A DNA stretch of 64,000 nt. It comes from a virus (lineage: Duplodnaviria > Caudoviricetes). This document shows, piece by piece, positions 5,070 to 20,736 of this stretch (its first letter is position 1; every line of letters begins with the position of its first letter). The stretch covers positions 19,827-83,826 of IMG/VR virus record IMGVR_UViG_3300009873_000004; one strand, given 5' to 3'. Made by a program: the position numbers and the translations under genes. The notes below the pieces were generated by a model, which was not told where the DNA came from, searched no databases, and worked only from the letters and a program-made list of their open reading frames with translations.

Positions 5070-5534
5070 TTACGGCTCAAAGTGGAACATGACGACCGCC
5101 AGCGATTGCAGAGCTCCGGTTCCACCGACCGGCTCCGTGCGCTTGACGGTCTGGACGTAGGTGCCAACCTTGTTGGCCGTAACGTTGGTCGTCCACTTGC
5201 CTGACTGGCTGGCGTAGATCGCCGTGCCGGGGGTGGACGGCAGCGCCGCTTCGTCGAAGAAGTCGACGCTCATGGCGGCAAAGCCCTGCCCGGTGACGAG
5301 CACGACCTCTTCGCCCGAGTCGTAGGTCTGGCTCGCCGGGCGGTACTCGCGGTAGCGCAGGCCGAACAGGAAGCCGAAGGGCTTGGTGGCAGCCGCCGAC
5401 CCGGAGGTCGTGACCGTCGAGCCGGAGGTGTCCAGCTTCGCCATCAACCCCTGGTAGTAGCCCGAGGTCGAGGTCTTCAGCCCCTTGCCGTAGCGGATCC
5501 CCCCATTCATCAGTTGAAAGACTTTAGCGGCCAT
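5070..5534 (-). CDS. Head decoration/cement protein
   Basis: 154 aa, G/T/S-rich beta protein between scaffold and capsid genes; PGTAIYASQSGKWT motif typical of decoration proteins. Confidence 0.55.
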   Translation of the reverse strand: MAAKVFQLMNGGIRYGKGLKTSTSGYYQGLMAKLDTSGSTVTTSGSAAATKPFGFLFGLRYREYRPASQTYDSGEEVVLVTGQGFAAMSVDFFDEAALPSTPGTAIYASQSGKWTTNVTANKVGTYVQTVKRTEPVGGTGALQSLAVVMFHFEP

Positions 5535-5549
5535 TCTTCATTCTCCCGT

Positions 5550-6791
5550 TTAGCGCAGGCTGATCTTGCGAGCGCCGTTCTGAGGTGCGCCAGCGTCGGG
5601 TTCTGGCAGGCCACCCCGCAGTCCCCCGCCCAATTGCACCCGCGAGCGCCTGCCCTCTTCCAGGGAGGCCACCACGGTATTGAAAGCGTCGTCATCGAGG
5701 CCCAGCAGGGTGTCCTGCTTCTCGGCCGCGACCAGATCCTTGAGCCGAGTCTTGCGCTCGGTCTGCTTGCGCTCGGCCTCGGTCTTCTCGGCCTGGGCGA
5801 TCTTGGCTTCAGCCGCCGTCAGCGCCTCGGCCTTGGCCGTCAGGTCGGCCTCCGCCTGAGCCCTGGCGGCTTCGAGCGTGGTCTTCTCCTGGGTCAGCGT
5901 CTCGACCTGCGCTTCCAGGGTGGCGGTCTTTTCCTCGGCCGCCGTCTTGGCCTTAAGGGCCTCGTTCAAGTCGGCCAGCAGGGCAGCCGCGCTCATCGAC
6001 CGGCCGCACTTGCCGCACTTATCGCCCTCGCCCTCGGCACCACAATGGGGGCATTTGTGCATCGGTTCCTCCTCTTCAGCTTCAGCATGGTTGGCGACGA
6101 AGTACATCTGGTTGCGATCGAAAACGGTGTCGCTGCCAGCCGGATTGCGGACAATGCCCGCGCCCTTGCCGCGCAGCCCCCGCAGTTGGCGGCGGGCACC
6201 GGATTTCTTCTTGGAACGGAGATGCTCGCAGTAGTCGCGGCGGGCCGTAAAGGCGTTGCCGCAAGCCGAGCAGGTAACGGTGGTGGCGTCGGCTTCGACC
6301 GAGAGCTTGTGGGTCCCGGCCTGCACCCCGGCGATCTCGTCTGGGTAGCGGTCAACCCACAGCAGGCCGTCAATGGCGAGGGACTTCTTGCCTTTGAAGG
6401 TGACGGCGCGAGCGGCCGAGACGAACCCGGCGTTTTCCTGCTGGTGATGCTCGATGTCGATTGCCCGGCCGACGATAGTGGTCGCCAGTTCCTCGATCCC
6501 GTCGTCGAAGATCTCGTCGTTGTTGCGGTTGGTCTCGACGTGGCACAGAATGGCGTTCTTGAAATGCAGCAGATCGCCGTCTTCCGTGGCCTGAAGAGTC
6601 AGATCGAGGGTGCCGTTGACTTGCGCGAAGGAGAGAAGATCGGAGAGGTCGGCCGCTTCCAGTTCGCCCTTGTTGAGCATGTCCTGGCCGATGGCCCAGG
6701 CCCGATCGCGGCGCTCAGAATCAGGAAGATCCGGATAGAAATCCGGATCCGCGAGTCGGCTCTGGACGAATCGTTCGACAACCTTTGGCAC
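5550..6791 (-). CDS. Prohead maturation protease fused to coiled-coil scaffold
   Basis: N.N.D.F, IDIEH (catalytic His-like), LSVEA (catalytic Ser-like), CSACG...YCEHL zinc motif, A/E/K-rich coiled-coil C-terminus. Confidence 0.75.
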   Translation of the reverse strand: MPKVVERFVQSRLADPDFYPDLPDSERRDRAWAIGQDMLNKGELEAADLSDLLSFAQVNGTLDLTLQATEDGDLLHFKNAILCHVETNRNNDEIFDDGIEELATTIVGRAIDIEHHQQENAGFVSAARAVTFKGKKSLAIDGLLWVDRYPDEIAGVQAGTHKLSVEADATTVTCSACGNAFTARRDYCEHLRSKKKSGARRQLRGLRGKGAGIVRNPAGSDTVFDRNQMYFVANHAEAEEEEPMHKCPHCGAEGEGDKCGKCGRSMSAAALLADLNEALKAKTAAEEKTATLEAQVETLTQEKTTLEAARAQAEADLTAKAEALTAAEAKIAQAEKTEAERKQTERKTRLKDLVAAEKQDTLLGLDDDAFNTVVASLEEGRRSRVQLGGGLRGGLPEPDAGAPQNGARKISLR

Positions 6792-6819: not shown

Positions 6820-6856
6820 AAAAAAAGAGAGCGGGGGCTTTATGCGCCCTGCTCTC
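6820..6856 (-). terminator. Intrinsic terminator upstream of the protease/capsid operon
   Basis: GAGAGC-(inner GC stem)-GCTCTC hairpin followed by T7 on the minus strand. Confidence 0.7.
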
Positions 6857-6896
6857 CTGGAAAAAACGACCCTAAATTCGTGATGCGCTTGCGCAC

Positions 6897-6927: not shown

Positions 6928-7929
6928 TTAGCTTTCTGTCAACACCTTCTCCAGCCGGGTGATGACCTCCGGCCAGCGATAGCGAGCGGCCGTGTCCGGC
7001 CCGGTTTTGGCGAACTTCTGGCGCAGATCGCGGTCGTGGTTGAGCCGTTCCAGCGCCTTGACCAGCCCGAGCGCGTCATCGGCCACCAGGCAGTTTTCCT
7101 CCGGCTGGAGGTACTCATGGTTGCCATGGCTGTCAGTCGTGACGACCGGCGTGCCGCAGGCCATGGCCTCTAGCGCGGTCAGGTTGAAGCCCTCGTGCTG
7201 GGAGGTGGACAGGAAGGCCTGGCAGCTTTGATAGAGCTTGAGCACCGCGTCGTCGGGCGGGCGCGAGAAGTGCTGGGAGACCGGCACGATCATGGGCAGT
7301 TTCTTGTCCAGCCCGTAGGTGATGATCTTGCCCCCGCTCTGGGTGATGTAGCGGATGCACTCGCACAGCAGGTCCCAGCCCTTGAGAGCCTGCATCCGGG
7401 CGCAGGCCAGGAAGACTCCGCCATGACGCTTGTCCTTCTTGGGAGGCCGCCAATCATTCCCCAGCCCGATGCCGATGTGCAGGGTGCCCGGCAGTTGCGC
7501 TTCCACCCAGCGGCTGGTCGTCACCTGAAGCAGGCCCATCTCATACGTCTGCATGACCTGCTTGGCCCACACCGGCTGGGAAGTGTACGACGTCTCCACG
7601 TCCTGGATCAGATAGACGCCCTCGTCCTGCTGGGCGGCCTGGTCGACGATGTAGGCCGTGCGCCAGTAGGTCGCCATCTTCCAGCCGCGCTGCTTTTGAA
7701 GCAGCACCCCCAGCGGCTGGTAGTCAGCGATCGTGCCGGTCTTGAAGAAGTCGACCCACTTGACCTGCGGGTCGAGCTTGAACCAGTCGGTCAGGGTCTC
7801 GCGCTTATTGACCGACCAGATCGTCACCGGCCACTCACGCCGCGACAGGCGATTGGCGATCTCGCCCACCACCCGCACGCCCCCGGCCAGGCTGCCGGTC
7901 TCCAGGACGATGTGGACCGGGCGCTTCAC
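6928..7929 (-). CDS. Glycosyltransferase, GT-B fold (family 4-like)
   Basis: GGVRVVGEIAN N-terminus; STSQHEGFNLTALEAMACGTPVV (EX7E) motif. Confidence 0.9.
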   Translation of the reverse strand: MKRPVHIVLETGSLAGGVRVVGEIANRLSRREWPVTIWSVNKRETLTDWFKLDPQVKWVDFFKTGTIADYQPLGVLLQKQRGWKMATYWRTAYIVDQAAQQDEGVYLIQDVETSYTSQPVWAKQVMQTYEMGLLQVTTSRWVEAQLPGTLHIGIGLGNDWRPPKKDKRHGGVFLACARMQALKGWDLLCECIRYITQSGGKIITYGLDKKLPMIVPVSQHFSRPPDDAVLKLYQSCQAFLSTSQHEGFNLTALEAMACGTPVVTTDSHGNHEYLQPEENCLVADDALGLVKALERLNHDRDLRQKFAKTGPDTAARYRWPEVITRLEKVLTES

Positions 7930-8765
7930 GCCGCCACCTGTTCGTCAAAGGCCCGCTGGCGCTCCAGGGCAGCCTGGATGTAATCGGTCATGTAGCGCGG
8001 GTGGGTGCCGCTGAAAGGCTGGAACTCTCCCCGGCTGGCGGCCACGTCGAAGACGCGCATGTAGTCGAGATACCCCTGCTCCCACTGGGCCTTGACCTTG
8101 GGATCGGGGAAGCCCAGTTCGGTGTAAAGCTCCTGGAAGGAGCGCTCCTTCTCCAGCGCCTCGGGCATGCGCCCGGTGTGGACCTTGCCGTAGTGCATGA
8201 TTTGCAGGCGGGTCTGCCATTCGGCCCCGCCGCCCAGGGCGCAGGCATCCCCGCCCTTGCCGGTGTCATAGCGCAGCCCGGCGTGCGTGCGCGAGAGCAC
8301 CGCCTTGGAGTCATAGATAAACGGGAAGGTGGTCCCAAAGTCCGGGCAGAAGTGAGTGTAGGTTGGCCGCCCGAGCGGCACCCGCCGCAGGGCCATCGAG
8401 CCCAGGTCGTGCCGGAAGGCTTCGAAGCTGGCTTCGTGGATGACCTCGTCGGCGTCGAGCTTGAGCGCGAACTCATAGCGCGTGCCGATCTCGTTCAGCA
8501 GGAAGTTGCAGATGTAGGCCTGGATGGTGTGGTGGTCGCCCCAGGGATGGCGGCGCAGGTTGAGTTCGCCGTTGGCGATCTCGCGGTTGAAGCGGGTGGT
8601 GATGCGCAGCAGCGAGTCGTCAATGCTGTCGCACTCGCCGTAGTAGACCGCCCCCTGCCCGTTCACAAAGCGCGTCAGGTCCAGGGCGCTCTCGATCGAC
8701 TCCAGATAGGGATAGCGGATCTTCTCAAGGTTGTGCCCGAACAGGTAAACCGCAAGCGTGTCCAT
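7926..8765 (-). CDS. Glycosyltransferase, GT-A fold (family 2-like, divergent)
   Basis: YP..ESIES, EC.S.D.S and ALKLDADE (DxD) motifs; IMHYG. Confidence 0.7.
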   Translation of the reverse strand: MDTLAVYLFGHNLEKIRYPYLESIESALDLTRFVNGQGAVYYGECDSIDDSLLRITTRFNREIANGELNLRRHPWGDHHTIQAYICNFLLNEIGTRYEFALKLDADEVIHEASFEAFRHDLGSMALRRVPLGRPTYTHFCPDFGTTFPFIYDSKAVLSRTHAGLRYDTGKGGDACALGGGAEWQTRLQIMHYGKVHTGRMPEALEKERSFQELYTELGFPDPKVKAQWEQGYLDYMRVFDVAASRGEFQPFSGTHPRYMTDYIQAALERQRAFDEQVAA

Positions 8766-8767
8766 GC

Positions 8768-9472
8768 CTATTCTCCTGGTCCGGTGAAGATGAGCGGGCG
8801 AACGTAATCGGGCAAGGGCTTGATAATTCCGAGCTTGTGGGCGTTCTCTACCCGACCGATGTACTCATGCCAGGGTCCGATCCCGATCTCGCCCTGGTGA
8901 ACCTGATAGCGCCAGCCCTTGGCGATCAACTTCTCGCGAGAGGCGCAGGAGGTGTGGTCGAAGAAGTACACCCCCTGAGCCAGCATCTTGATCCTGAGCT
9001 TCTCAGCCTGTGGCTCGGTATGCACTCGCTGGGAAAAATGGACGCCCGGCAGGCGCTTGAAGAGCCGCTGGGCCGGTCCTTCGCCTCCGGCGTGGTGATA
9101 GCGGTCCAGGATAGTCGACCACTTCAAGAACTCCCAGATGTGCCCGTCGCGCCAGTTGGAGGTGCGCAGCCACTCGGCGAAGTTGCTGGTGAAGGTCTCG
9201 TCAGCGTCCAGGTAAAGGATCCATTCTGAGGTGAGCGGCTCAAGAGCCAGATTGCGAAGTTTTCCGTGATGGCTATGACGATGCTCGTGCTGTAGCACGA
9301 TGTTGAGTCGGGATCGAAATGACTCAACAATGGCAAGAGAAGCATCGGTGCTCCCATTATCGACGATCGAGAGGGTGCCCAGCAGGTCGCCCAAGGAGCA
9401 GAAGCTCTCCAGGGCGTAGGGCAGCAGTTCTTCTTCGTTGAGCAGGATCAGGAAGGCATCCAGCAGGCTCAT
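8768..9472 (-). CDS. Glycosyltransferase family 2
   Basis: LNEEELLPYALES, IVDNGSTDAS, EWILYLDADE. Confidence 0.9.
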   Translation of the reverse strand: MSLLDAFLILLNEEELLPYALESFCSLGDLLGTLSIVDNGSTDASLAIVESFRSRLNIVLQHEHRHSHHGKLRNLALEPLTSEWILYLDADETFTSNFAEWLRTSNWRDGHIWEFLKWSTILDRYHHAGGEGPAQRLFKRLPGVHFSQRVHTEPQAEKLRIKMLAQGVYFFDHTSCASREKLIAKGWRYQVHQGEIGIGPWHEYIGRVENAHKLGIIKPLPDYVRPLIFTGPGE

Positions 9473-9738
9473 TTCACACAGATCGCGGTGGCCGGGAAGA
9501 GCGGGTCGAGCGTGACCCGCAGCCCGTAAATCATCTCCACGTCCACCGTCCCAAAGTGATACTCCAGGGAGATCGGATTGATCACCAGTTCGACCGGGAC
9601 CTGGCCGAAGTTGGCATGGTGATCCAGGATCACCCGGACCAGATCGTACATGCGCTCAAAGCGAGTCAGGCGGCGCGTGAGTTCCTGGTGGCTCGCCACC
9701 GCCTCCAATTCCTCCAAGACCAAGTTCGCCGGTTCCAT
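9469..9738 (-). CDS. Hypothetical protein (89 aa)
   Basis: GAGG SD before ATG 9738; ATGA overlap with downstream GT2. Confidence 0.5.
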   Translation of the reverse strand: MEPANLVLEELEAVASHQELTRRLTRFERMYDLVRVILDHHANFGQVPVELVINPISLEYHFGTVDVEMIYGLRVTLDPLFPATAICVK

Positions 9739-11188
9739 ATTCGCCTCGCGCTCCAATGTCGGACTCTCTCACCCCCCAGTCCATAATATCCACCTGCTTG
9801 AGTTTCTTGCCCCCCGCCTTCAGTTCATAGCGGCTCGACGCCCACTTGAGCAGCCGCTCGATCAGCCATTTCTCCAGCCGGAAGTGGGTAAAGAAGCGCT
9901 TGCGCCAGCGCCAGGAGGCCAGGGCTTCAAGCGGCCAAATAAATGCCCGTCGCCAACCTGGAAAGTTGCGTTCAGTTTTGTCGCCGCGACCACGATGAAA
10001 ATGCAGTCCGCCGATGTGATACAGGTTAGAGGCCCGCACGTCCAGGGTCTGGTTGAGTGAATAGTTGGACCACTCTGCCATTGTTTGGGGCAGGGAATCC
10101 GGATCCACCAACTCAAATAGCGGACTGCCAGGGAGCGCCACATAGGCGTAAAAGTTCTGCGTAAGTCGGCCGTCATGGATACGATTGAGCCGATCCGCCT
10201 GGTCCAGAGTCTCATTGATCTCCTCGGGAGTCTCGGTCGGGAAGCCGGTGATCCAGTAATACAAGGGCCAGATGCCGTGGTTGGCGAGCGCCTGCGCACA
10301 GCGAACCTGGTCGTCCCGCGTAATGTCTTTCTCTGTGAGTTCGAGCATCCGCTTGCTGGCCGTCTCCATGCCGATGGAGATGTGCTTGATGCCCATGTCG
10401 GCCATTTCGCGAGCCACTTCATCTGTGACCTGGTGGGCTCGGATCGACGGGCGGTACTCAATGCCAAGGTCCCGCAGGTAGCGGATGATCTCTCGGGCTC
10501 GGGGCCAGCGACCAATCCAATCGTCACCATGCTCGTATTTCCTGACGCCAGCGTTCTCCAATAGATACTTTACATCCCACTTCCAGCGATCCAGGTCGAC
10601 CGATTGCCAACTGCGCTCGAAGAACTGCTGGATGTAGCAGAAGCCGCACCGAAACGGGCAACCCCTGGACGTCATCAAGACGCTGTCGCCGGTTCGGGCG
10701 GAACGACGAAAGTGAAGGAGGGTGTGTGGACTAACCGGGGAAACATGGTCAGCAGTTCCTGACAGATGTCCATGGGCACGTTGTTTAGGTCCACCGTGTA
10801 TAGCTTCAAGGACTGCCCACTCTCCCTCTGAAAGAACCACAGCGTCAACGTAGTCTTCTGCCAGGCACTGGTCGGGCTGCATGGTGACATGGATACCGCC
10901 CAGGATAGTTCGCTTGCCATGCGCCTTGGCTCCTTTGAGGATCTCGATCGCGCCCTGTAACTGGTAGCCCGTCATCGACGACACGCCTACCACGTCCGGC
11001 CAGGACAGGTCCGGCCAGGGATCGTAGCGCCCATCCCAATAGCGCACGTCGTAGGTCTCATCGCTCTTGCCCCTGGCTTTTGCTTCGACCAGCGCCTGGC
11101 CGACGTGCAGGATCGAAAGCGGCGGGCTCTTCTGCGGCGAGCTAACCGATGGTCGCGGGTAGGCCAGCAGGACTTTAGTCGTGCCCAT
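9656..11188 (-). CDS. Cobalamin-binding radical SAM enzyme (class B methyltransferase-like)
   Basis: N-terminal B12 domain (PPLSILHV, DVVGVSSMT, ILGGIHVT, VVLSEGE); SRGCPFRCGFC CxxxCxxC; IGMETAS; WITGFPTET. Confidence 0.92.
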   Translation of the reverse strand: MGTTKVLLAYPRPSVSSPQKSPPLSILHVGQALVEAKARGKSDETYDVRYWDGRYDPWPDLSWPDVVGVSSMTGYQLQGAIEILKGAKAHGKRTILGGIHVTMQPDQCLAEDYVDAVVLSEGEWAVLEAIHGGPKQRAHGHLSGTADHVSPVSPHTLLHFRRSARTGDSVLMTSRGCPFRCGFCYIQQFFERSWQSVDLDRWKWDVKYLLENAGVRKYEHGDDWIGRWPRAREIIRYLRDLGIEYRPSIRAHQVTDEVAREMADMGIKHISIGMETASKRMLELTEKDITRDDQVRCAQALANHGIWPLYYWITGFPTETPEEINETLDQADRLNRIHDGRLTQNFYAYVALPGSPLFELVDPDSLPQTMAEWSNYSLNQTLDVRASNLYHIGGLHFHRGRGDKTERNFPGWRRAFIWPLEALASWRWRKRFFTHFRLEKWLIERLLKWASSRYELKAGGKKLKQVDIMDWGVRESDIGARGEYGTGELGLGGIGGGGEPPGTHAPPDSL

Positions 11189-12110
11189 CGGCAATACTTT
11201 CCAGATAGCTGTCCCAGCGCCGGACGGTGATGCCCGGATCGAAATGGGTCAGTGTCCAATTGTAGGCCGGGTCGACCATTTCCAGGTAGGGAGCCGGGTC
11301 CCTCAGAAAGGCGTGGATGTGGTTGACGAACTCTTCCGAGTTGCGGGCGAAGTGGGCGAAGCCGCCCGTCGTCTCGCGCAGGGCCGGAATGTCCTGGCAT
11401 ATGACCGGCACCCTGCCCATCTGCGCCTGGGCGACGGAGGTGCAGCAGCACTCGTCCCGTGTGGGGAAGACGAACAACTTCAGGTTGCGATAGAAGATCT
11501 TGGGGTTGACCCAGCCGGTGATCAGGCAGTTGGACGGCGCTCGCTTCTGGCAGACTTCCAGCAACGGCCCGTCTCCGGCTAGGGCAAAGGGCTGTGCTGC
11601 AAAGACCCAGGCCAGGGCGATAAACTCCAGCGGGCACTTCTCGTCCGCCAGGCGGCTGAGTTTTCCGATCACGGTCGGGGTTACTTCCGGATCGCGTTCC
11701 ATGCGCTCAACGATCGCGTAGATCGTGGTGCGGTTGGGCATGCGCAGGTTGCGCTCGGAGGCCAGATGGCTCATCGCCACAAAACCGTCCACCAGTTCGG
11801 GCGGGGTCGGGCTGGCCGCGATCGAGTGCATGCACTCCACGAACTTCGCCCCCCACTCGTGCGCCAATCTGGCGTTGTCGGCATAGCTCCAGCCGCCAAC
11901 CGTGTGGCCGACGACGACTTTGTAAGTGCTCTTGAGTTCTTCCGGGGGTCCGCCTGGGAATAGGCGCATGCCCTCCAAGCGCATCTGCTCGGCCATTGAG
12001 CCATCCGCCGCCCAGAAGTCGTGAACATGCTTGGAGTGCCGGTGCAGGCGCAGCAGGTTGGCCTGGATGCCGCCCCTATGACTCACGTCGAGACAATGAA
12101 GAATATTCAT
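11175..12110 (-). CDS. Glycosyltransferase, GT-B fold (family 4-like)
   Basis: IGKLSRL..EK, LAGDGPL, FVFPTRDECCCTSVAQAQ...VPVICQDIPALRE; start refined to ATG 12110 (MNILHCLD). Confidence 0.85.
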   Translation of the reverse strand: MNILHCLDVSHRGGIQANLLRLHRHSKHVHDFWAADGSMAEQMRLEGMRLFPGGPPEELKSTYKVVVGHTVGGWSYADNARLAHEWGAKFVECMHSIAASPTPPELVDGFVAMSHLASERNLRMPNRTTIYAIVERMERDPEVTPTVIGKLSRLADEKCPLEFIALAWVFAAQPFALAGDGPLLEVCQKRAPSNCLITGWVNPKIFYRNLKLFVFPTRDECCCTSVAQAQMGRVPVICQDIPALRETTGGFAHFARNSEEFVNHIHAFLRDPAPYLEMVDPAYNWTLTHFDPGITVRRWDSYLESIADGHD

Positions 12111-12661
12111 TCCTTCCACGACCTGCCAACAATAATGGCACTAATGTTTGCCCGTTTGACGCCATAGTTGTCAGCCAACTGCTGCTGTGTCATCACACGC
12201 TCCTTGTAGAGCCTGCGTATTTCTCGCACATCATCCCAGGTCAAAACCGCCCTGGCCGCATTTTCCCCTCTCGGGTAAGGCGTCTTGCGATTTTTCTTGA
12301 CTCGCCCCAGGCCATTATCTGTGGCCCGCTTGATATTTTCTAGCTGAGTTACCGGCTCCAGATTGGACGGACAATTGTTGTGCTTATTGCAGTCCTTGTG
12401 ATCGATCTCAAGATCGTCAATAACATCCCCAAAAAAGTAGATGTAGACCACTCGATGCGCCGAGGCCTTGATCGACTGCCCGTCCTTGAATGTCGAAAGC
12501 CTAAGATAGCGCCCAGCATTCTCTGCTCGCTTTGGCTTTTTGAGTCTGATCCTTCCAGCAAACGGATGGATCCACCAATGACGCCAGATTCGGCCTTCAT
12601 CATCAATCGATAGTGTTCCATTTTGGACCAGACTCAGAAAGAACTTCTCCCCAGGTCGCAT
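12107..12661 (-). CDS. HNH homing endonuclease (HNH_3) with C-terminal HTH
   Basis: AHRVVY..FFG, IDHKDCNKHNNCPSNLEPVTQLEN; A.LT..DV.EIR and QQQLADNYGVKRANISAI HTH; ATG 12661 with AAGGAG SD. Confidence 0.92.
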   Translation of the reverse strand: MRPGEKFFLSLVQNGTLSIDDEGRIWRHWWIHPFAGRIRLKKPKRAENAGRYLRLSTFKDGQSIKASAHRVVYIYFFGDVIDDLEIDHKDCNKHNNCPSNLEPVTQLENIKRATDNGLGRVKKNRKTPYPRGENAARAVLTWDDVREIRRLYKERVMTQQQLADNYGVKRANISAIIVGRSWKE

Positions 12662-12695
12662 TGTCATCTCCTTGGTAAAAGATGACAATAGTATA
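12660..12695 (-). promoter_or_regulatory. RBS-sequestering hairpin and -10 box (TATACT) of the HNH gene
   Basis: Perfect 10-bp inverted repeat ATTGTCATCT/AGATGACAAT (12660-12669, 12680-12689) covering part of the SD and the start codon; TATACT at 12690-12695. Confidence 0.7.
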
Positions 12696-12751
12696 CAGCA
12701 AATGGTGGTATTCAGAAAGCCGGTTGGAATTGTCCAGGCAGTGCAGGATAT

Positions 12752-13405
12752 TCATTTCTTGATCCCCAGCCACCAGATGACGACCGGATGCAGGCCATCG
12801 GGCGGCGTGTTCCAGGAAGGCACTTCCTGCTGCGCCAATCGCACCGGGATCCACTCGCCCGTCATGCCCCGGCTGATCTTCGAAGCGTACAGTTCCTGGA
12901 TGATTGCCCGGTTCCCCCAACTGCCGAACTCGACCGTCTCCCACCAGAGCTCCGGGAAGAGAAAGCGGTAGCCGTCAGGCGAGATCCGCCAGCAGTCCAG
13001 GGGAGCCGGGTGAGTTGGATGCAGGTAAGGCGTGGCGACGATCGCCAGCCCACCCGGCTTCAAGACCTTGTAGATCTCCAGCGCAGCAGCGAAGATGTTT
13101 TGCACATGCTCCAGCACCTGGTCGACGATCAGCACGTCCCAATGGCCGGTCCACTCATTGGGCAGAATCTGAATGTCGATCTGTGGGTAGTCACATACCT
13201 GGGCCTCCACCCGCTGGCCGTGCAGGGACTTGAGCATGCGAATGATCGACGTCGTCGGCTCCCTGGCCCCGATCTCCATCACCCGCAAAGGATCGGCCAG
13301 CATCATCGTCCGCTTGAGAGTCGCGAAGATGCGCTCGTACATGACATGGCGCACCAGGTCGTGGTGCGCCCAAGAGCCATCAATCGGCCGCCAGATGTCG
13401 CTCAT
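12752..13405 (-). CDS. Class I SAM-dependent methyltransferase (Methyltransf_11-like)
   Basis: VMEIGA motif I, WDVLIVDQVLEHV, YKVLKPGG, DCWR; start by ATGA coupling. Confidence 0.88.
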   Translation of the reverse strand: MSDIWRPIDGSWAHHDLVRHVMYERIFATLKRTMMLADPLRVMEIGAREPTTSIIRMLKSLHGQRVEAQVCDYPQIDIQILPNEWTGHWDVLIVDQVLEHVQNIFAAALEIYKVLKPGGLAIVATPYLHPTHPAPLDCWRISPDGYRFLFPELWWETVEFGSWGNRAIIQELYASKISRGMTGEWIPVRLAQQEVPSWNTPPDGLHPVVIWWLGIKK

Positions 13406-13986
13406 GCTCGCCCCAGCAACATCCCGTTCCAGTCCAGCCAGTGGCAATGTCGGTAAATGGGGTCTTGGTGAATGTGGGCCTGGATCTGATCGCTCAGTGC
13501 ATGCTTGTGAATGCCGTGCTGGCCGAACTTCTCCAGCCAGTATTCCTTGGTCGCTTCGCCGTAATGCCCCTCACCCCCCTGCCCCGGCCGGGCCGCCGAG
13601 AAGTAGATCAGCGGAGCGCACTTGACCAGGGTAGCGACCAGCGTGTCGTGAAACTCGAAGTGCAGGTGCTCGCCGACTTCGATGCACAGGGCTAGATCAA
13701 AGACTTGGGGCGGGTCCCAGGCGGCCCGTAGATCAACAATTTGGAACTCTTCTGGAGCCACGGATTCCCCGCCTGCCGGACAGCCGTCGATCGCCAGGAC
13801 CTGGCAACCACGTTCCTTGAATGGGACGAGATAAATGCCCGGCCCAGCGCCCACATCAATAACAGACTTAGGCTGAAGCCGGTCATGCAGTAAAGCGCCC
13901 AGCGCCATGGCTTGCTCAGTTTCATGTTTGAGCACCTCCTTCATCAGCCAGGTGTATTCTTCGAGATTGAAATAGCGCTCGGTCAT
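13402..13986 (-). CDS. Class I SAM-dependent methyltransferase
   Basis: VIDVGAGPG, LAIDG, DLR, FDLALCIEVGEHL, PGQGGEGH. Confidence 0.9.
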   Translation of the reverse strand: MTERYFNLEEYTWLMKEVLKHETEQAMALGALLHDRLQPKSVIDVGAGPGIYLVPFKERGCQVLAIDGCPAGGESVAPEEFQIVDLRAAWDPPQVFDLALCIEVGEHLHFEFHDTLVATLVKCAPLIYFSAARPGQGGEGHYGEATKEYWLEKFGQHGIHKHALSDQIQAHIHQDPIYRHCHWLDWNGMLLGRA

Positions 13987-14195
13987 GCCAGCCTCGCCCA
14001 GGTCTCCACCGCCAGCTTGAAACGATCGAAGTCTGGATGGGCGCGGTGGATCGAGTAGGTCGCCACCTCTTCGCCGTTTGCCAGCAGGAAGTGCGCCCGC
14101 AGCATGATCCCGTCGTCGCGCATCTCGACCTTATCGGCTTCGATGTGCAGGTGCTTGCCGTCGATCCTCCGTCCTTTGAAGACGAACTCTTTCAT
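13983..14195 (-). CDS. Hypothetical protein (70 aa)
   Basis: ATGA-coupled at both ends. Confidence 0.55.
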   Translation of the reverse strand: MKEFVFKGRRIDGKHLHIEADKVEMRDDGIMLRAHFLLANGEEVATYSIHRAHPDFDRFKLAVETWARLA

Positions 14196-14437
14196 CTTTC
14201 CCTCAATGGAGTTGCCGGATTGTCTACGTACAGTTGCATTTCTCCTATCTTACCCAGCATTTCTTTGGACGTTTTCAAGAGAGATGCGTACATTTCCCTG
14301 AAGTAAGGCGATAGGAGCAGTTGTTGCTCCTTGCCAAACATTTCCGAACCAACATTCACGGTCTGCCTAACAAGCCCCATGAAGACTTTCAGAAACTCCT
14401 CGTCACTTTCGTTTACGTCGATTCTGACAGTCTTCAT
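14192..14437 (-). CDS. Hypothetical protein (81 aa)
   Basis: GGAGG SD before ATG 14437; lower GC than neighbours. Confidence 0.5.
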   Translation of the reverse strand: MKTVRIDVNESDEEFLKVFMGLVRQTVNVGSEMFGKEQQLLLSPYFREMYASLLKTSKEMLGKIGEMQLYVDNPATPLRER

Positions 14438-15333
14438 CCGAACACCTCCCGCAGTTCCAGAGTTGTAGCCTCGGCTGTGTAGCACAGGCTCCAGTCATAG
14501 GCCTGCTGGCGGATCCGCTCGCGAGCAGTCTCATCCCCGCGCAGGAGCTTGAGCCCGTCGACCACTTCAGCCACAAAGCGCGAGGGCGAGCCGTGCCCGC
14601 CGTTGTCGGGATCCTGCACCACCCAGGCCGTCTCGCGGTGGAACATGAACTCGTTTCCGCCACCCCCGGTCGTGCCGACCACCACCGCCCCCGAGCGCAT
14701 CGCTTCCAGGCAGGCCATCGGAAAGCCTTCCGGGTGAGTCAGGTGGGCGTAGTAGTCGCATTCGGCCAGCAGGTCGGCCAACTGGGCCTGGGTCTGCGGC
14801 TCGGTCACGTAGACCACGCCAAAGCCTTCGGCCTCCAGCGCCACTTTGAGCATCTGGTGGTAGGGATTGCGCCGGGCCATGACCAACACCCAGTTCTTCT
14901 GCTTGATGCCCACGCGCCAGGGAGAGAGTTCCAGGAAAGGCGTCACCTTGCGCAGGGCCTTGACATCGAAGACGCGCTGCATGTGGTTTGCCAGGAAGCG
15001 CGAGCAGACCAGCACCTCGCCCGGATCGCGCAGAAACTCCAGCCGGTCTAGCCAGACGTAGTTCTGCACGAAACACAACGAGCGCACCCCGTCACGATGG
15101 ATATGCGGCCAGAGCACTTCCGGCACCACCAGCACATCCCCCTGCCCCAGGCGGATCTCGGTCGTCAGATACCGGCGCGGAATGGGATTAGCATCCCACC
15201 AGGCCAGGTAGTCGTTCGTCTTCTGCCAGGCCAGGGCGGGCAGACCGGCCTGGTTGAGCAGATCCACCAACTTGTAGAGAAACCAGACTCCGCCTGAAGG
15301 CGTGTCGGGTTTGGGCACATGAAAATAGATCAC
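14434..15333 (-). CDS. Glycosyltransferase, GT-B fold (family 4-like)
   Basis: PSGGVWFLYKLVDLLN; PEGFPMACLEAMRSGAVVVG. Confidence 0.85.
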   Translation of the reverse strand: MIYFHVPKPDTPSGGVWFLYKLVDLLNQAGLPALAWQKTNDYLAWWDANPIPRRYLTTEIRLGQGDVLVVPEVLWPHIHRDGVRSLCFVQNYVWLDRLEFLRDPGEVLVCSRFLANHMQRVFDVKALRKVTPFLELSPWRVGIKQKNWVLVMARRNPYHQMLKVALEAEGFGVVYVTEPQTQAQLADLLAECDYYAHLTHPEGFPMACLEAMRSGAVVVGTTGGGGNEFMFHRETAWVVQDPDNGGHGSPSRFVAEVVDGLKLLRGDETARERIRQQAYDWSLCYTAEATTLELREVFG

Positions 15334-15623
15334 CGAACGACCACCTTTCGAGTCCGAGGCCTGATTCCCAGCAGGCGAGCCCAGAATCCCGGATCGTCAT
15401 CTTCATAGTCGGTTGCCTCAAAGCGCACCTGGCCCGGACGCTCAGGTGCTCGCTCGTCGACGCTGGCTCCACATTCTTGACACTTGATCTGTCTCTTCTG
15501 ACTGCCGCAGTAGGCGCAGATCCGCTCCAGACCCTGGTAATTCGGCCAGATGCGTAGGGTTGCCATTGAACCCGAGGTCGGCACATAACTCAACGCTGGC
15601 TGGTCAACATAGATAACGCTCAT
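15330..15623 (-). CDS. Small double zinc-ribbon protein
   Basis: CAYCG...CQECG; coupled at both ends. Confidence 0.5.
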   Translation of the reverse strand: MSVIYVDQPALSYVPTSGSMATLRIWPNYQGLERICAYCGSQKRQIKCQECGASVDERAPERPGQVRFEATDYEDDDPGFWARLLGIRPRTRKVVVR

Positions 15624-16462
15624 CCTGCCTCCATCCCGCCTGCGTGCATGCCCTGGGCGCTAAAACGCATGAAGTCCAGGCCGGTCCACTTCTGAAAGAG
15701 AAAGGCCAGCGAGTGCGCTTCCTTCTCGGCTACCTCCGGCTCCAGCGCCAACTTCTCCTCCAGCGTCCGTCCCCGGCTTGCGCCTTCCTGGTGAATGGCG
15801 TGGGTGTAGCCCAGATAGACGGGCGGCATGCCGCACTGGAAGGACCGCAGGCCCAGGTCGATGTCCTCGGCCGTAAAGCCGAAGCGCCGATCCAGGAGCC
15901 CTGAGCGCATGATGAACTCGCGGGAGACTCCCAATAGCGCTCCCGTCACCAGCCCGGTGCGCATCACCACCGCGTCTGGATCGAGCGCGTCTTCAAAGCG
16001 ACACAGGTGGTCGAAATACCCAGGCAGCGGGCCTTCAGGCGTGGGCACAAAGACCACCCCGGCATGCTGGATGCGCAGGTCCGGATACAGCAGGCGGCAG
16101 CCGATCACCCCGGCTCGCAGCTTCGTTTGCGCGTCGGCCAGCACCTGGAGCGACTCTTCGGTGAAGAGGATGTCGTTGTTGACCAGGAAGACCGAATACT
16201 CGCCGTTGGCCCGCTCGATCCCGGCGTTGCAGGCGGCGGCAAAGCCCTCCCGCTCGATCCGGACCAGTTCCACCTCGAACTCGGTCGCCAGGGCCTGGAG
16301 CAGGTCAAGCGCTTCGCCGTCGTCGCCGTCCGAGACGATAAAGGTCTCGGGGAACATGTGGTCGTGCGTCTGGCGCAGCGATGTCAGGCAAGCGCGGGTC
16401 AACTTCGCCCCCTTGACGCCGTAAGTCGGGATGACGACCGAGGCCCAGGGAGTCTCGATCAT
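15620..16462 (-). CDS. Glycosyltransferase family 2
   Basis: SVVIPTY, IVSDG, GFAAACNAG, FLVNNDI, VTGALLG, EDIDLGLR. Confidence 0.92.
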   Translation of the reverse strand: MIETPWASVVIPTYGVKGAKLTRACLTSLRQTHDHMFPETFIVSDGDDGEALDLLQALATEFEVELVRIEREGFAAACNAGIERANGEYSVFLVNNDILFTEESLQVLADAQTKLRAGVIGCRLLYPDLRIQHAGVVFVPTPEGPLPGYFDHLCRFEDALDPDAVVMRTGLVTGALLGVSREFIMRSGLLDRRFGFTAEDIDLGLRSFQCGMPPVYLGYTHAIHQEGASRGRTLEEKLALEPEVAEKEAHSLAFLFQKWTGLDFMRFSAQGMHAGGMEAG

Positions 16463-17454
16463 GGCGCGTTCCCCCACAACACCTGCTCATAGCGGTCGAC
16501 GTTGCGGTGCATCAGATGATCTCTGGCCCAGGCCAGGCCTTCCTCGCGCAGTTCCCGCCGCAGGCTATTCTCCGTACAGATCCGGCGCAGCGCCTTCTTC
16601 CAGCCGTCGTTGTCAATCAAGAGACCGCCCTTGGGTTTGTGATAGTAGGCATAGTTGAGAGTCGCCACCCAGGGCACGCCCGTCCGGGCATACTCCAGCA
16701 CCTTGAGGTGCGAGCGGTAGCGGTCGTACTGCCCTGAGAGCGGCGCGATCCCGGTTCCAAATTTGGACACTTCCTGCGGCCAGGCTTCATAGCTGACCCA
16801 GGGACGCGAGTCATGCGGAGCCTGGATCAGCGATTGCAGATAGTCGTTGTAGATCACCAGCCGGTGCTCGGGCAGGCCGACCAGCGCCCTGCCAATCCCG
16901 CGACTGATCTCCAGGTTCTGCCAGGTCTGGGCATGCCCGCTCGACCCGCCCCAGCCAATGACCTTGCTGTCCAGGCTGGCCGCGCCTTCCGGCCAGCAGT
17001 CGCCATCCAGAAAATTGCCCAGGAACTGGACCTTGCCGTAGTTGCCGAAATAGCGCACCAGTTCGTGGCTGGGAACCACGGAAAGATCCACCAGCGACAG
17101 CGCCTTCAAAAAGTTGGGGTAGTTCTGCTTCCAGTAGCGCTTGGCGCTGACGATCTCGGGCATGGCCCCGTAGTGATCGTCAAAGGTGCAGATGATGCGT
17201 TTGGCCCCCGCCAGGCGCAGCTTCTCCACCCGCTCGACGGTCAAGTTGCGCTCGATCAGCACCACCTCGGGCACCGGCTCGGTCCAGTCGATGTCGTCGC
17301 GAAACTGGCCCAGGCCGTTGATCTGCCAGGTCGCCAGGCGCAGATGGATGGTGTGTCCCGCCTGTTGAAGGTATTTGCGAGGAATGTGAATGCGATAGTC
17401 GGAGGTGGCCGTCTTTTCGCCCGGCGCATCTCCCTGCAAAAACAGGGCTTCCAA
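16459..17454 (-). CDS. Glycosyltransferase, GT-B fold
   Basis: SDYRI..P..YL, TFDDHY, IGWGGSSGH, GIAPL...YDRYRSHLKVLEY...GVPWVA. TTG start supported by leader GGAGATCAGGC, identical to that before the ATG at 4049. Confidence 0.8.
   Translation of the reverse strand: MEALFLQGDAPGEKTATSDYRIHIPRKYLQQAGHTIHLRLATWQINGLGQFRDDIDWTEPVPEVVLIERNLTVERVEKLRLAGAKRIICTFDDHYGAMPEIVSAKRYWKQNYPNFLKALSLVDLSVVPSHELVRYFGNYGKVQFLGNFLDGDCWPEGAASLDSKVIGWGGSSGHAQTWQNLEISRGIGRALVGLPEHRLVIYNDYLQSLIQAPHDSRPWVSYEAWPQEVSKFGTGIAPLSGQYDRYRSHLKVLEYARTGVPWVATLNYAYYHKPKGGLLIDNDGWKKALRRICTENSLRRELREEGLAWARDHLMHRNVDRYEQVLWGNAP
16755..16768. promoter_or_regulatory. Palindromic site TTCCAAATTTGGAC inside a GT gene
   Basis: Copy of the 14-bp motif, encoded with atypical AT-rich codons. 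Confidence 0.45.
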
Positions 17455-17471: not shown

Positions 17472-19862
17472 CTAGAGTCGACGACGGCGCAGCCGCCCGT
17501 TGACGGGCGTCTTCAGCCCCTCCTCCACCATGGCCGCGATCTCGTTGCGGTGCGAGGGCACCGGCATCTCGATCGACGGGATGGCTCCCACAAAGTATTG
17601 CAGGTAGAGCGCCTGCGCCCCGCACATCTCGTTGGGGTGCATGACGATAAAGGGCTCGGTGCTGGCATGCACGATCTGGCTGTCAGCCACGCACAGCGGA
17701 CAGGGTCCCGAGGCGCTCTTCTCCGGGTGCAGCACCCGCCGCCAGTGGGACGCGCCCTGCTGCTGAAAGGCGAACATCTGCCCGTTGAGGACCGCCATCT
17801 TATAGCCCTCTTGCGGGTAGAGCATCGCCCGCCAGGCGATGCGGGCCGTCTGGTGCTCGTCGGTGGCGTTCAGATCTTCCAAGAAGCCGTCCGCAAAGGC
17901 GTTGATCCAGGCCGACGACTGGTCGAGCCATTCGTCCAGCGCCGCGCCATTGACGGTCCCAAACGCCCCGCCACTGGCCTCATAGCTGGCCCGCCCGATC
18001 AGCCGGGTGAAGCTGGCGTTGTGCATCTTGAGCGCGGCGATAAAGGCGGCCGGATCCCCCCGCTCCCAGAGCAATTCGCGCAGGGCGGCATAGATCTCGG
18101 CAAACCAGGCCTTGCGATCCGCTTCGTCGTCGGCTGCCTTGAGCGAGGTCTTGGGCCGACCCTGCGGCTTGGTCTGGCTGACGGTCTTGCTCGCGCCGTT
18201 CGGACCCGCCACGGTCTGGGAGAAGGAAGCCGGAGGCCCGAACTTCTCCTTGTTGGGATCGAACTCCTTCTTGCGCTCCAGTTCGGTCTCGTAATCGTAC
18301 CCGGATCGTTCCAGCGTCGTCTGCGGGCTGATCAAGCCGATGGTGTACAACGGCTGGAGTTCTTTCTCGATCTGGCTGCCGACCTCCAGCAGGGACTTGG
18401 AGAACCCGACCTTGGCCGAAGCAATCTTTTCGGCTGCCCTGGACCCGTCGCGCTCGGCCCAGCGGCGGCGATAGCCCTGCTCCCACTTCAAGACCTGCGT
18501 GCGGGCAAACTCCAGCCGCCGCAGGTACATGGTCAGGTCGATGTCCAGGCCCTGGTCGCCGCCTGACGAGCCCGAGAGCAGCTTGTTGCCGGTCGCCAGT
18601 CGGATGTTGGAGCCCAGGTCGCGGTAAACCGCCAGGGTCATCGACTGGTCGATCTGGTCGCCGATGGCGGCTTCCAACCCCTCGGGCACGATCACCTTGA
18701 CTTCCAGCCCGAAGCGCCAAACCAGGTCGCCCGTTCGCTGGCCGTTGAGACCGCCGATGGCGGCCTTGAGCGCGGCCATCTCCTTGGGCGAAGGCGGCAT
18801 GTCCTTGGTGCCCAGGACGAAGAGCCACAACTGGTTCTTGTAGCCTTCGAGCAAGGCCCGGCGCATCTCGCGATAAACCGCCCGCGTCGAGATCGAGCGG
18901 AAGGCGCGAGCATACGGCGGCAGGGGATAGCGCTGCCAGTCAAAGGCCTTGGCCCTGACCGGGTAGAGGTAGTTGGGGTTGATCGGGATGCCCCAGCCCT
19001 GGAGCACCTGCTCATTGAAGTCCGGCCCGAAAGCGTTGTAGGTCATCGGCCGGAAGGCGTTCTGCACCAGATCCTGGGTCCAGGTCTCGCTGTTGTTGAG
19101 CGGCCGGATGGCGTAGGGAGTCGCGGCGTTCTGCGGCAGGCGGGCCTGCTGGCCGTAGGTCAGATGGTTGCCGACCCAGATGTAGCGCGGGGGCAGCATG
19201 AAGATGCTTTCGGCCTGGCCGGTGGCCTTGTCCTGCGGGATCTCGATCGGATAGGCCGAGCCCCACACCCCGACGCACATCATCAACTGGTAAAGCACAT
19301 GGCGCATGTCGATCCCATGCACCGAATAGTGCTCCTGAAGCTGCTTCTCCAGGCCCTTGTCCTTGGGGACCGAGACGGTGATCTCGGGCGAGATCGCCAC
19401 GTCGATGGCGCTCTCCAGGTGCTGCCAGACATCGCCCTCGGTGTTGTTGTAATACTCCGAGAGGTTCATGGCCGAGCGAATGGCGGCCGGGATCGGATCC
19501 GGTGGCCGCTCGTCTTTTCGAGGCTCCTGCCCAACCAGACCGCCCCGGTAATCCGGATCCGGGTCGAGCATCGCCACCAGGCTGTTGAAGCGGTTGGCTG
19601 CCTCCACCAGGACCGGGTCCCGGCGATCAATCGTCTTGCCGCGCTCGCCCTGCCCCACCAGCCGCTCGACCTTGGCGTACAGATCGCTGTCGGGCGTCCG
19701 GTTCCAGATCACCGGAAAGCCAAACTCTCCAGCCTCGTCGTGCTTGGACTGGAGAGTCAGCAGGTCTTTCTCGCGCTTGGAGATGAAGCGCTGGTTGTGG
19801 TTGTCCCACCAGCGCCGGTTCTTGTTCTTGTAGACGAAACGCTCGGTTGGCTTCTTGGGCAT
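17472..19862 (-). CDS. Portal protein with C-terminal MuF/head-morphogenesis-like domain
   Basis: About 800 aa between terminase and protease; portal-like central region; C-terminal WRRVLH..S..GPCPLC...HPNEMC resembles the MuF CxxC...HPNCRC motif. Confidence 0.7.
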   Translation of the reverse strand: MPKKPTERFVYKNKNRRWWDNHNQRFISKREKDLLTLQSKHDEAGEFGFPVIWNRTPDSDLYAKVERLVGQGERGKTIDRRDPVLVEAANRFNSLVAMLDPDPDYRGGLVGQEPRKDERPPDPIPAAIRSAMNLSEYYNNTEGDVWQHLESAIDVAISPEITVSVPKDKGLEKQLQEHYSVHGIDMRHVLYQLMMCVGVWGSAYPIEIPQDKATGQAESIFMLPPRYIWVGNHLTYGQQARLPQNAATPYAIRPLNNSETWTQDLVQNAFRPMTYNAFGPDFNEQVLQGWGIPINPNYLYPVRAKAFDWQRYPLPPYARAFRSISTRAVYREMRRALLEGYKNQLWLFVLGTKDMPPSPKEMAALKAAIGGLNGQRTGDLVWRFGLEVKVIVPEGLEAAIGDQIDQSMTLAVYRDLGSNIRLATGNKLLSGSSGGDQGLDIDLTMYLRRLEFARTQVLKWEQGYRRRWAERDGSRAAEKIASAKVGFSKSLLEVGSQIEKELQPLYTIGLISPQTTLERSGYDYETELERKKEFDPNKEKFGPPASFSQTVAGPNGASKTVSQTKPQGRPKTSLKAADDEADRKAWFAEIYAALRELLWERGDPAAFIAALKMHNASFTRLIGRASYEASGGAFGTVNGAALDEWLDQSSAWINAFADGFLEDLNATDEHQTARIAWRAMLYPQEGYKMAVLNGQMFAFQQQGASHWRRVLHPEKSASGPCPLCVADSQIVHASTEPFIVMHPNEMCGAQALYLQYFVGAIPSIEMPVPSHRNEIAAMVEEGLKTPVNGRLRRRRL

Positions 19863-19894
19863 GATTGAATTGCAGTGTAATTGCAATTCAATCA
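19862..19894. repeat. Perfect 13-bp AT-rich inverted repeat filling the portal leader
   Basis: TGATTGAATTGCA-gtgtaat-TGCAATTCAATCA. Confidence 0.9.
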
Positions 19895-20089
19895 GTCGTC
19901 AAGCGGCTCGTCTTCTTCCGGCTTGCCGGTCTCCGGGTCGATGTAGCGCTTGCCGTGACAGTCGGGGTAGTTGCGGCAGCCCCAGAAGGGAGTCCAGGCT
20001 GCCCTGGGTCCGGGACGGCGCAGGATCATGGGAGACGCGCCGCATTCCGGGCAGGTCGGTTCAGGTTTCACTTGAATGATCGACGGCAT
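19892..20089 (-). CDS. Topoisomerase C4-type zinc-finger protein
   Basis: CPECG..M.LR.....FWGC.NYPDC. Confidence 0.8.
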   Translation of the reverse strand: MPSIIQVKPEPTCPECGASPMILRRPGPRAAWTPFWGCRNYPDCHGKRYIDPETGKPEEDEPLDD

Positions 20090-20664: not shown

Positions 20665-20736
20665 TTCGGTTCCTCCGAGGCCAACACTCAATCCGCCAGC
20701 CAACCTCTTCCGCAGCCCTGACTTTCTGGCCGGTCT

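Follow-up and report, generated by a model that had tools for sequence, protein, structure and literature searches.

A candidate virion glycosylation pathway encoded behind the portal gene of an uncultured tailed phage

The 64,000-nucleotide stretch of DNA analysed here (the window) comprises bases 19827-83826 of an 83,826-bp IMG/VR virus record (IMGVR_UViG_3300009873_000004), which derives from an uncultured tailed phage and has 144-bp terminal repeats. At window positions 6928-17454, its minus strand carries a block of genes for seven glycosyltransferases (GTs; four GT-B and three GT-A), two S-adenosylmethionine (SAM) methyltransferases and one B12-binding radical SAM enzyme. We propose, with a probability of about 60%, that this block is a phage cytoplasmic O-glycosylation pathway that puts a methylated oligosaccharide on the phage's own virion proteins. 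A preliminary description had suggested a virion-directed glycan pathway drawing on host sugars. This is still the best reading, given the soluble enzymes, the slot in the late arm, the arrangement in relatives, the enrichment of the tetrapeptide TSGS, and a genomic position like that in mycobacteriophage Corndog.

The late genes lie on the minus strand in the order terminase-like open reading frame (ORF), portal gene, glycan block and head genes, and the late arm runs on beyond the window with tail genes, a tape measure gene (PF10145) and lysis genes. Early genes occupy the plus strand, and the replication genes sit on a different arm from the glycan block. The GC content of the phage DNA is approximately 60%. 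The block is co-oriented with the portal gene and starts 17 nt past the portal stop codon. Besides the ten enzyme genes, it holds one HNH-HTH gene and four small ORFs that the preliminary description had passed over, and ten of its 15 junctions are 4-nt ATGA or GTGA overlaps when the nearest in-frame start codon is taken. All junctions are tight, and a scan for promoters and terminators inside the block found none except at the HNH insert. No transmembrane or hydrophobic segments were detected in the block proteins by a hydrophobic 19-mer scan, and all ten enzymes are thus predicted to be soluble.

The absence of genes for nucleotide-sugar synthesis, a flippase, a polymerase or a hydroxymethylase, first noted for the window, extends to the whole 83.8-kb record. 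Searches of this record yielded no nucleotide-sugar enzymes of families PF01370 and PF00483, and no ThyA-like hydroxymethylase (PF00303), for which control genomes gave matches. No polytopic membrane protein was found across the genome, where no protein has more than two hydrophobic 19-mers, and by this same scan no flippase, polymerase or Gtr-type membrane glycosyltransferase is encoded.

Relatives of the phage, and other phage contigs that share its radical SAM enzyme, were found by alignment-based profile scans, and are labelled L for loci and G for genomes (L002 = G001, L031 = G002, L034 = G004). The seven glycosyltransferases of the preliminary description were recovered at the same positions through Pfam, PHROG 7162, AlphaFold2 (AF2) modelling with Foldseek, and Atlas placement. 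Pfam models Glycos_transf_1 and Glyco_trans_1_4 match three GT-B (GT4) enzymes, encoded like all genes of the block on the minus strand: 14434..15333 (PF00534 and PF13692, E ~5e-11; 43-47% identity in L003, L004 and L006), 11175..12110 (PF13692 and PF00534; 45-48% identity in L006 and L031) and 6928..7929, the last gene of the block (PF00534, E 8e-19; 57% identity in L031). Two GT-A (GT2) enzymes match PF00535 (Glycos_transf_2) and are encoded at 15620..16462 (ORF to 16477; E 3.5e-15) and 8768..9472 (E 1e-12; 52% identity in L031).

The remaining GT-B enzyme, a GT4-like protein encoded at 16459..17454 and hereafter called the core GT, stands directly after the portal gene throughout the lineage. 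It matches nothing above the Pfam and NCBIfam thresholds, and its homologue in L020 scores 25.6 bits on PF13692, under the cut-off of 27. It is recognized by PHROG 7162 ('glycosyltransferase', E 3e-11). Thirteen homologues were aligned (A2). An AF2 model of the protein has a predicted local distance difference test (pLDDT) score of 91.8, and Foldseek pairs it with BshA, PimA, the methylmannose-polysaccharide (MMP) mannosyltransferase, GtfC and SdgB at E ~1e-12. Template-modelling (TM) scores of 0.6-0.73 to BshA, PimA and GtfC are those of a GT4 GT-B fold, in which two Rossmann domains are paired and the C-terminal one binds the nucleotide sugar. The third GT-A-like enzyme (7926..8765), a divergent GT2 with a DxD motif at residue 104 and 57% identity in L031, has no Pfam, NCBIfam or PHROG match; the Atlas places it among viral GT2 clusters with a feature score of 0.97, and its structural TM score to GT2 models is 0.75. 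The fold match of the core GT and the Atlas placement of this enzyme therefore bear out the count of four GT-B and three GT-A enzymes.

Pfam domains also support the two class I SAM methyltransferases and, together with a CxxxCxxC motif at residue 179, the B12-binding radical SAM enzyme, all of which had been recognized earlier. One methyltransferase is encoded at 13402..13986 (Methyltransf_23, E 1.5e-10) and has homologues in L003, L006, L031, L033 and L034, those in L033 and L034 being fused to a GT4 enzyme. The other, at 12752..13405 (Methyltransf_11/23/12), lies in an ORF that extends to 13447, and its ATG at 13405 overlaps the upstream stop codon by 4 nt.

The radical SAM enzyme (9656..11188, minus strand) contains PF04055 (E 5.5e-20) and PF02310 (E 2e-11; 44 bits versus a cut-off of 32), and its cluster motif is invariant in 23 homologues (C177, C181 and C184 in alignment A3). 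These features clearly mark it as a predicted class B (B12-dependent) radical SAM enzyme, belonging to a clade of its own whose members come almost exclusively from phage-like contigs. No other gene of the block is as well conserved: its product shows 53-82% identity to more than 100 metagenome clusters, compared with 31-52% for the portal protein. No match to it was returned from 50,697 GenBank phage records, and a search of one genome per prokaryotic species yielded a single close match at 72%, two at 38-40% and the rest at 28% or less. The 72% match (L047, CAYGZE010000164.1) lies on a 9.7-kb contig binned to an Anaerolineales metagenome-assembled genome, which also encodes a double GT2 protein; it may be a weak hint of a Chloroflexi host, or a mis-binned phage contig. 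Some homologues (e.g. P0115 and P0128) carry LAGLIDADG or intein inserts, which are typical of very conserved phage genes.

The closest solved structures to the radical SAM enzyme are 9CCB, which is the MCR (methyl-coenzyme M reductase) glutamine C-methyltransferase QCMT (PMC12931638), and AprD4, with OxsB, CysS and TokK also in this group, at profile E values from 9e-19 to 3e-8. These nearest structures differ in reaction, which is methylation for QCMT, dehydration of a sugar diol for AprD4 and ring contraction for OxsB. The phage protein falls far below every NCBIfam equivalog cut-off, its best score being 84 bits versus 251. A sugar is the favoured substrate because the gene is always flanked by genes for glycosyltransferases, methyltransferases or sugar-nucleotide enzymes, both in phages and around the nearest bacterial homologues; the two of these at 38-40% identity sit in nucleotide-sugar and glycosyltransferase clusters. 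The 'O- and possibly C-methylated' glycan of the preliminary description is retained with a reservation, in that C-methylation by the radical SAM enzyme is one possibility only.

The radical SAM gene was found in several neighbourhoods. In G002/L031 of IMG/VR, whose capsid protein is 59% identical to that of the present phage, the distal sub-block, including the radical SAM gene, is preserved in the same order. In L032, the gene lies among those for glycosyltransferases, an FkbM methyltransferase, a sugar 4,6-dehydratase and a GHMP kinase. In L033 and L034, siphophage contigs of unrelated build, genes for an O-methyltransferase, the radical SAM enzyme (74-75% identity) and a GT4::methyltransferase fusion stand directly upstream of a protease::HK97-capsid fusion gene, after which come the connector and tape-measure genes. 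A virion target is supported because this core of radical SAM enzyme, glycosyltransferase and methyltransferase genes also adjoins the capsid gene in an unrelated siphophage lineage.

Candidate acceptors are suggested by the tetrapeptide TSGS, the most over-represented in the proteome, which occurs in 22 copies versus 0.32 expected from composition. Per-protein shuffles gave 0.4 +/- 0.6 copies and a maximum of 3. The motif is 50-fold enriched, and late-arm virion proteins hold 20 of the 22 copies. The motif is encoded by 14 different DNA spellings, including AGC and TCN serines, by which a DNA-level motif is ruled out. Two copies, at residues 36 and 43, are present in a 154-amino-acid head decoration or cement-like protein (5070..5534, minus strand; Pfam Phage_cement E 5e-4, below the cut-off), and two more in a 335-amino-acid protein encoded upstream of chaperone-position genes and the tape measure gene. 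The latter protein is assigned to the major-tail-protein position because the 1240-amino-acid ORF is the tape measure. Distal tail or fibre proteins also carry TSGS, one of them in eight copies.

Motif counts in other genomes cover G001 to G004. With distal enzymes 48-76% identical to those of the present phage, G002 has 32 copies of TSGS versus 1.3 expected, including 20 in one 2084-amino-acid fibre protein, and the motif recurs at the same positions in its orthologous decoration and tail proteins. The copies in the decoration-like protein are missing in G001. These findings suggest that TSGS goes together with the distal enzymes, or with a change in specificity, and not with the core GT, although the motif could serve another purpose. 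In G004, a 158-amino-acid protein encoded just before the tape measure gene (L034:9002-9478) has TSGS at residue 153, its end. The distal tail proteins of G004 (L034 10043 onward, plus L046) contain 19 copies of [ST][STA]G[ST] versus 3.9 expected; this pattern was chosen post hoc and is a lead only.

The preliminary description had called for a synteny search in related phages, and the order of portal and GT-B homologue proved to be kept in 15 distinct contigs. Loci with a portal homologue number 27 from metagenomes and one viral, and every one with DNA past the portal has a core GT homologue next. This arrangement was seen in 14 loci, or 13 distinct ones (L002 and L009 read as one phage), at 26-39% identity, and two more IMG/VR contigs (L127 and L132) share it, giving the total of 15. 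A GT2 gene like that at 15620 often comes next after the core GT (L003, L004, L006, L008, L016, L020, L026, L127 and L132).

Beyond these genes the cargo differs among relatives. L006 carries genes for a GT4 enzyme, three methyltransferases, a second GT4 enzyme, UDP-galactopyranose mutase (Glf), a GT2 enzyme and a radical SAM enzyme, whereas L008 has genes for GT2 and GT4 enzymes, a DegT-type aminotransferase and a GT4-GT2 fusion. The L006 radical SAM gene carries a LAGLIDADG insert (L006:13686-15176). L013 encodes a GT4 enzyme, a sulfotransferase-like protein and a methyltransferase, and L020 a GHMP kinase, two nucleotidyltransferases, PhnD/PhnE-like ATP-binding cassette (ABC) transporter parts, a cupin, a DegT aminotransferase and a hexapeptide transferase. 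In L002/G001, an HNH gene is joined by genes for GT4, methyltransferase, GT2, cytidylyltransferase and ABC permease proteins, and about 13 kb further on lie the homologue of a 413-amino-acid head gene, a decoration-like gene and the capsid gene. The slot ends alike in G001 and G002, with this same series of head, decoration-like and capsid genes. Because glycan genes fill the slot in every relative with DNA there, with differing cargo, the portal-to-head interval is, as judged from gene content, a glycan island that is hypervariable across the lineage behind a conserved first transferase. The variable cargo suggests, by analogy with bacterial O-antigen loci, diversifying selection on an exposed glycan. 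Some relatives probably make their own activated sugars, unlike the phage studied here, which has no PF01370 or PF00483 protein. PhnD/PhnE-like ABC parts adjoin cytidylyltransferases inside the island at L020:16054-17702 and L002:12211-16231, and may mean that the glycan is decorated with a phosphonate or phospho-alcohol, or that the island also serves an auxiliary uptake function unrelated to the glycan.

The genes that bound the block were evaluated in the same manner. The 804-amino-acid ORF on its upstream side (17472..19886, minus strand) has no Pfam match and 20 homologues at 34-52% identity. Its AF2 model is of low confidence (pLDDT 57), but all of the approximately 50 top Foldseek matches in the PDB are phage portals, at E 2e-3 to 8e-2. 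A portal assignment is reasonable because of these matches, weak as they are by fold, and because of its place after the terminase-like gene. That gene, a 950-amino-acid ORF at 21719-24571 (minus strand), bears a LAGLIDADG intein. Sequence searches of the PDB with the portal, the 413-amino-acid head protein, the core GT, the 7926 glycosyltransferase, the 335-amino-acid tail protein and a 600-amino-acid fibre protein gave no match. Nucleotide and protein searches of the 50,697 GenBank phage records with the block, portal, capsid protein, radical SAM enzyme and core GT returned nothing, or marginal glycosyltransferase-domain matches only, and yielded no cultured relative.

The conserved head-module gene that closes the slot (5550..6791, minus strand) encodes the 413-amino-acid protein, which consists of an N-terminal domain, a zinc ribbon and, in its C-terminal third, an Ala/Glu/Lys coiled coil typical of scaffolds. 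No protease signature was found in it with Pfam, PHROGs, the PDB or the Atlas. The protease label is unproven because of this negative result and the scaffold-like coiled coil, and it was dropped, although a cryptic N-terminal protease domain is possible. Thus, of the earlier statement that the block lies between portal and protease, the portal side is supported, weakly, by fold and by synteny, whereas the protease side found no family support. In L031 and G001, a homologue of the gene is immediately followed by the decoration-like and capsid genes. The major capsid protein itself (4084..5046, minus strand; PHROG 2522, major head protein) has a 39% identical homologue in G001 at 19907-20785 and a 59% identical one in G002.

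Between the block and the 413-amino-acid gene, the segment 6835..6924 (minus strand) holds a near-consensus promoter-like site (TTGACA-16-TATGAT, an 11/12 promoter match) and, downstream of it, a GC-rich hairpin (6835-6875) with a T7 run, both of which precede the head genes. Because the promoter and hairpin intervene here, we assign the glycan block to the same transcription unit as the portal gene, and not to that of the capsid genes. Translational coupling inside a head-assembly operon had been proposed; the 4-nt overlaps at ten of 15 junctions agree with the coupling, but the promoter and hairpin, standing as they do before the capsid genes, speak against the shared operon. The promoter spacer holds the palindrome CCAAAATTTGG. 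Transcripts that start here would have to read through the hairpin, a layout suggestive of a regulated leader or of anti-termination.

The other ORFs of the block, all on the minus strand, are small or appear to be insertions. A 97-amino-acid ORF (15330..15623) matches the Pfam zinc ribbon DZR below the cut-off (E 1e-3), has one TSGS at residue 16 and shows a GC content at third codon positions (GC3) of 0.62. It is not conserved in relatives, there being no room for a counterpart in L003 or L006; its GC3 is also low, and it may have been acquired recently or may encode a small protein with an accessory or acceptor role. Two small ORFs of ~81 and ~70 amino acids occupy 13983..14437 (14192-14437 and 13983-14195), with 4-nt overlaps, no family match and low GC3 in the first. 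Another of ~60 amino acids (9469..9651; its start is the nearest in-frame choice) has no family match. An HNH-HTH homing-type nuclease gene (12107-12667; HNH_3, E 1e-11; GC3 0.57) forms, with an orphan copy of a GT4 N-terminus, the segment 12107..12755, and interrupts the first codons of the GT4 gene at 11175-12110. The first eight codons of that gene, for MNILHCLD, are present twice, at 12755 and 12110, with different synonymous codons, and both copies are ATGA-coupled to the preceding stop codon. The insert is AT-richer and is missing at the equivalent junction in L006 and L031.

If the block does glycosylate virions, the following course of events might be envisaged. Late in infection, one transferase would add a first unit from a host nucleotide sugar to Ser/Thr of exposed TSGS[A/G] loops, with the decoration-like head protein, the major-tail-position protein and the distal tail or fibre proteins as the likely carriers. 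The remaining transferases would lengthen this sugar into an oligosaccharide, which the two SAM methyltransferases would O-methylate. The B12 radical SAM enzyme would perform a modification beyond ordinary enzymes, most likely sugar C-methylation but possibly a dehydration or rearrangement. The glycan-coated subunits would then assemble into particles.

Several observations weigh against this proposal. The major capsid protein has no TSGS, and the more distant G001 lacks TSGS at the equivalent loop, though a core GT is present. QCMT, to which the radical SAM enzyme is closest among solved structures, methylates a protein residue, not a sugar. No detectable homology of the block enzymes to mycobacteriophage glycosylation enzymes was found by tblastn in the 50,697 phage records. 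We infer that the block is expressed late with the structural genes, a timing that is read from gene order alone. Finally, a tyrosine recombinase is encoded outside the window, at the far end of the late arm (G000:C1:793-1254, plus strand; PF00589, E 3e-31), and room is therefore left for lysogeny and host-directed functions. The phage may be temperate, or the recombinase may be used otherwise.

One alternative takes up this last point and holds that the enzymes are directed at the host, in an infected cell or a lysogen, where they would remodel a glycoconjugate or metabolite of the cytoplasm or inner leaflet. Storage glycans, glycolipids, teichoic-acid-type polymers and lipid-linked precursors are conceivable substrates, and the gain might be, for instance, exclusion of superinfecting phages or a diversion of sugar pools. 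The possibly temperate lifestyle implied by the recombinase would suit this explanation, as would the fact that lipids or small molecules are frequent substrates of GT4 enzymes with the core GT fold (PimA, BshA and MshA), and the ABC-transporter parts and nucleotide-sugar genes in the slot of relatives, which resemble auxiliary metabolic genes. We nevertheless regard it as quite unlikely. The genome is without a membrane glycosyltransferase, flippase, polymerase or Gtr-type protein, and envelope glycosylation of the Gtr or Wzx/Wzy type was rejected as there is no polytopic membrane protein. Moreover, the block forms part of the late structural arm, where it is coupled to the portal gene and lies neither near the recombinase nor behind a promoter of its own, the same module adjoins capsid genes in an unrelated lineage, and the TSGS enrichment in virion proteins would be left unexplained. 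A further alternative is glycosylation of phage DNA as an anti-restriction hypermodification, DNA being the classical substrate of phage glycosyltransferases. However, seven transferases with O- and radical methylation far exceed known DNA glycans, and other lineages have the module next to capsid genes. With no ThyA-like hydroxymethylase gene, and with the block placed in the late structural arm behind the portal, away from the replication genes, DNA hypermodification was set aside as the main reading and is highly improbable.

The island might instead be a mosaic of at least two independent modules with different substrates, a proximal one (core GT-B, GT2 and GT4) and a mobile distal one (GT4 11175, the radical SAM enzyme, GT2 8768, GT-A 7926, GT4 6928 and a methyltransferase), with the radical SAM enzyme perhaps methylating a protein side chain in the manner of QCMT and Mmp10. 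Over the DNA available, G002 (L031) has the distal sub-block alone in common with the present phage, the proximal genes recur in L003, L004 and L006, and TSGS follows the distal set rather than the core GT. At 53-82% identity, the radical SAM enzyme greatly exceeds the portal protein (31-52%) in conservation and is present in other phage lineages, its closest solved structure is the MCR glutamine C-methyltransferase (PMC12931638), and GC3 is lower in its gene, in methyltransferase 13402 and in GT2 8768 than in their neighbours. Yet both halves form one string in L006, the junctions of the present block are tight, with no internal promoter or terminator save at the HNH insert, and the constant company of glycosyltransferase, methyltransferase or sugar-nucleotide genes favours a sugar substrate for the radical SAM enzyme. 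We therefore consider independent modules unlikely, and favour a single pathway for virion glycosylation.

A more far-reaching proposal, which we offer as tentative and open to considerable doubt, is that the portal-linked slot is a 'virion serotype' locus of the whole uncultured lineage. A conserved initiating GT-B enzyme and a swappable toolkit would write differing glycans onto short sequons (e.g. TSGS) in exposed decoration, tail-tube and fibre loops, and a phage-restricted, 53-82% conserved radical SAM enzyme that hops between head modules of unrelated phages would carry out an undescribed radical modification of the protein-bound glycan. If so, cobalamin-dependent radical chemistry would be part of virus particle maturation.

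To our knowledge, phage particles with a sugar coat are established for a few mycobacteriophages only, in which this coat alters antibody recognition. The present locus suggests that virion glycosylation reaches well beyond actinophages, that phage pathways can match bacterial surface-glycan loci in elaborateness, and that glycan pathways can be swapped as cassettes at one set position within the head module. Two handles are also gained, namely the short candidate sequon TSGS and a very conserved, almost phage-only radical SAM clade. If confirmed, the pathway would be relevant to phage stability and adsorption in biofilms and sludge, to stealth coats for therapeutic phages and to the catalogue of B12-dependent radical chemistry.

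Among known systems, the radical SAM enzyme resembles class B enzymes such as QCMT, TokK, CysS and OxsB, and the related B12-free AprD4, in its N-terminal B12-binding Rossmann domain and CxxxCxxC core. Several of these enzymes methylate unactivated carbons; AprD4 acts on sugars, as do GenK and GenD1. In contrast with the characterized members, the phage enzyme scores below all equivalog cut-offs and represents its own conserved phage clade. The nearest cellular analogues in mechanism are the serine-rich and SD-repeat adhesin systems (GtfA/B, GtfC and later Gtfs; SdgA/SdgB), in which soluble GT4/GT-B enzymes start on Ser/Thr of short Ser-rich motifs, and GT-A and GT-B enzymes extend the glycan stepwise in the cytoplasm with no lipid carrier or flippase. 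Foldseek paired the core GT with two of these enzymes, GtfC and SdgB, although at only 12-16% sequence identity. The targets here would be phage structural proteins, with no export step, and the adhesin systems have neither methyltransferases nor a radical SAM enzyme. The slot also resembles bacterial O-antigen and capsule loci in its conserved flanks (portal and core GT on one side, the head gene on the other) and swappable glycosyltransferase, tailoring and nucleotide-sugar genes. Unlike those loci, it has no Wzx, Wzy or ABC export for a lipid-linked glycan, and its carrier is most likely protein; by analogy, the likeness is an evolutionary parallel, not membership.

The closest precedent is the glycosylation of mycobacteriophage virions. 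Corndog, a cluster O mycobacteriophage, has genes for an O-methyltransferase and three glycosyltransferases between its portal and protease genes (PMC4351075), and capsid and tail-tube subunits of mycobacteriophages are reported to be glycosylated (Freeman et al. 2023, Cell Host Microbe 31:1216, as relayed by PMC12619734 and PMC11256854). Like Corndog gp35-gp38 and the enzymes of Che8 (F1), the phage-encoded glycosyltransferases and O-methyltransferase considered here are soluble and not virion components, and, as in Corndog, their genes lie between the portal and the next head-assembly gene (PMC4351075). The candidate TSGS carriers, namely the decoration-like, major-tail-position and fibre proteins, would be comparable to the capsid and tail-tube proteins named in those reports, although the major capsid protein here is without the motif, and TSGS, as candidate sequon, lies in an internal loop and not in a C-terminal tail. 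The host of the phage is, in addition, not identified as an actinobacterium. When the core GT, GT4 6928 and methyltransferase 13402 were compared with the 50,697 phage records by tblastn, no actinophage glycosylation gene was recovered, the sole actinophage match being one of 22% coverage in Microbacterium phage Magritte. The block encodes ten enzymes versus two to four, making it two to five times larger, and adds a B12 radical SAM enzyme. Furthermore, its slot is a lineage-wide hypervariable island, of which the versions in relatives include nucleotide-sugar synthesis genes. The system is therefore not a new category; what is new compared with mycobacteriophage virion glycosylation is its size, the B12 radical SAM enzyme, the lack of homology and the variable island in which it resides.

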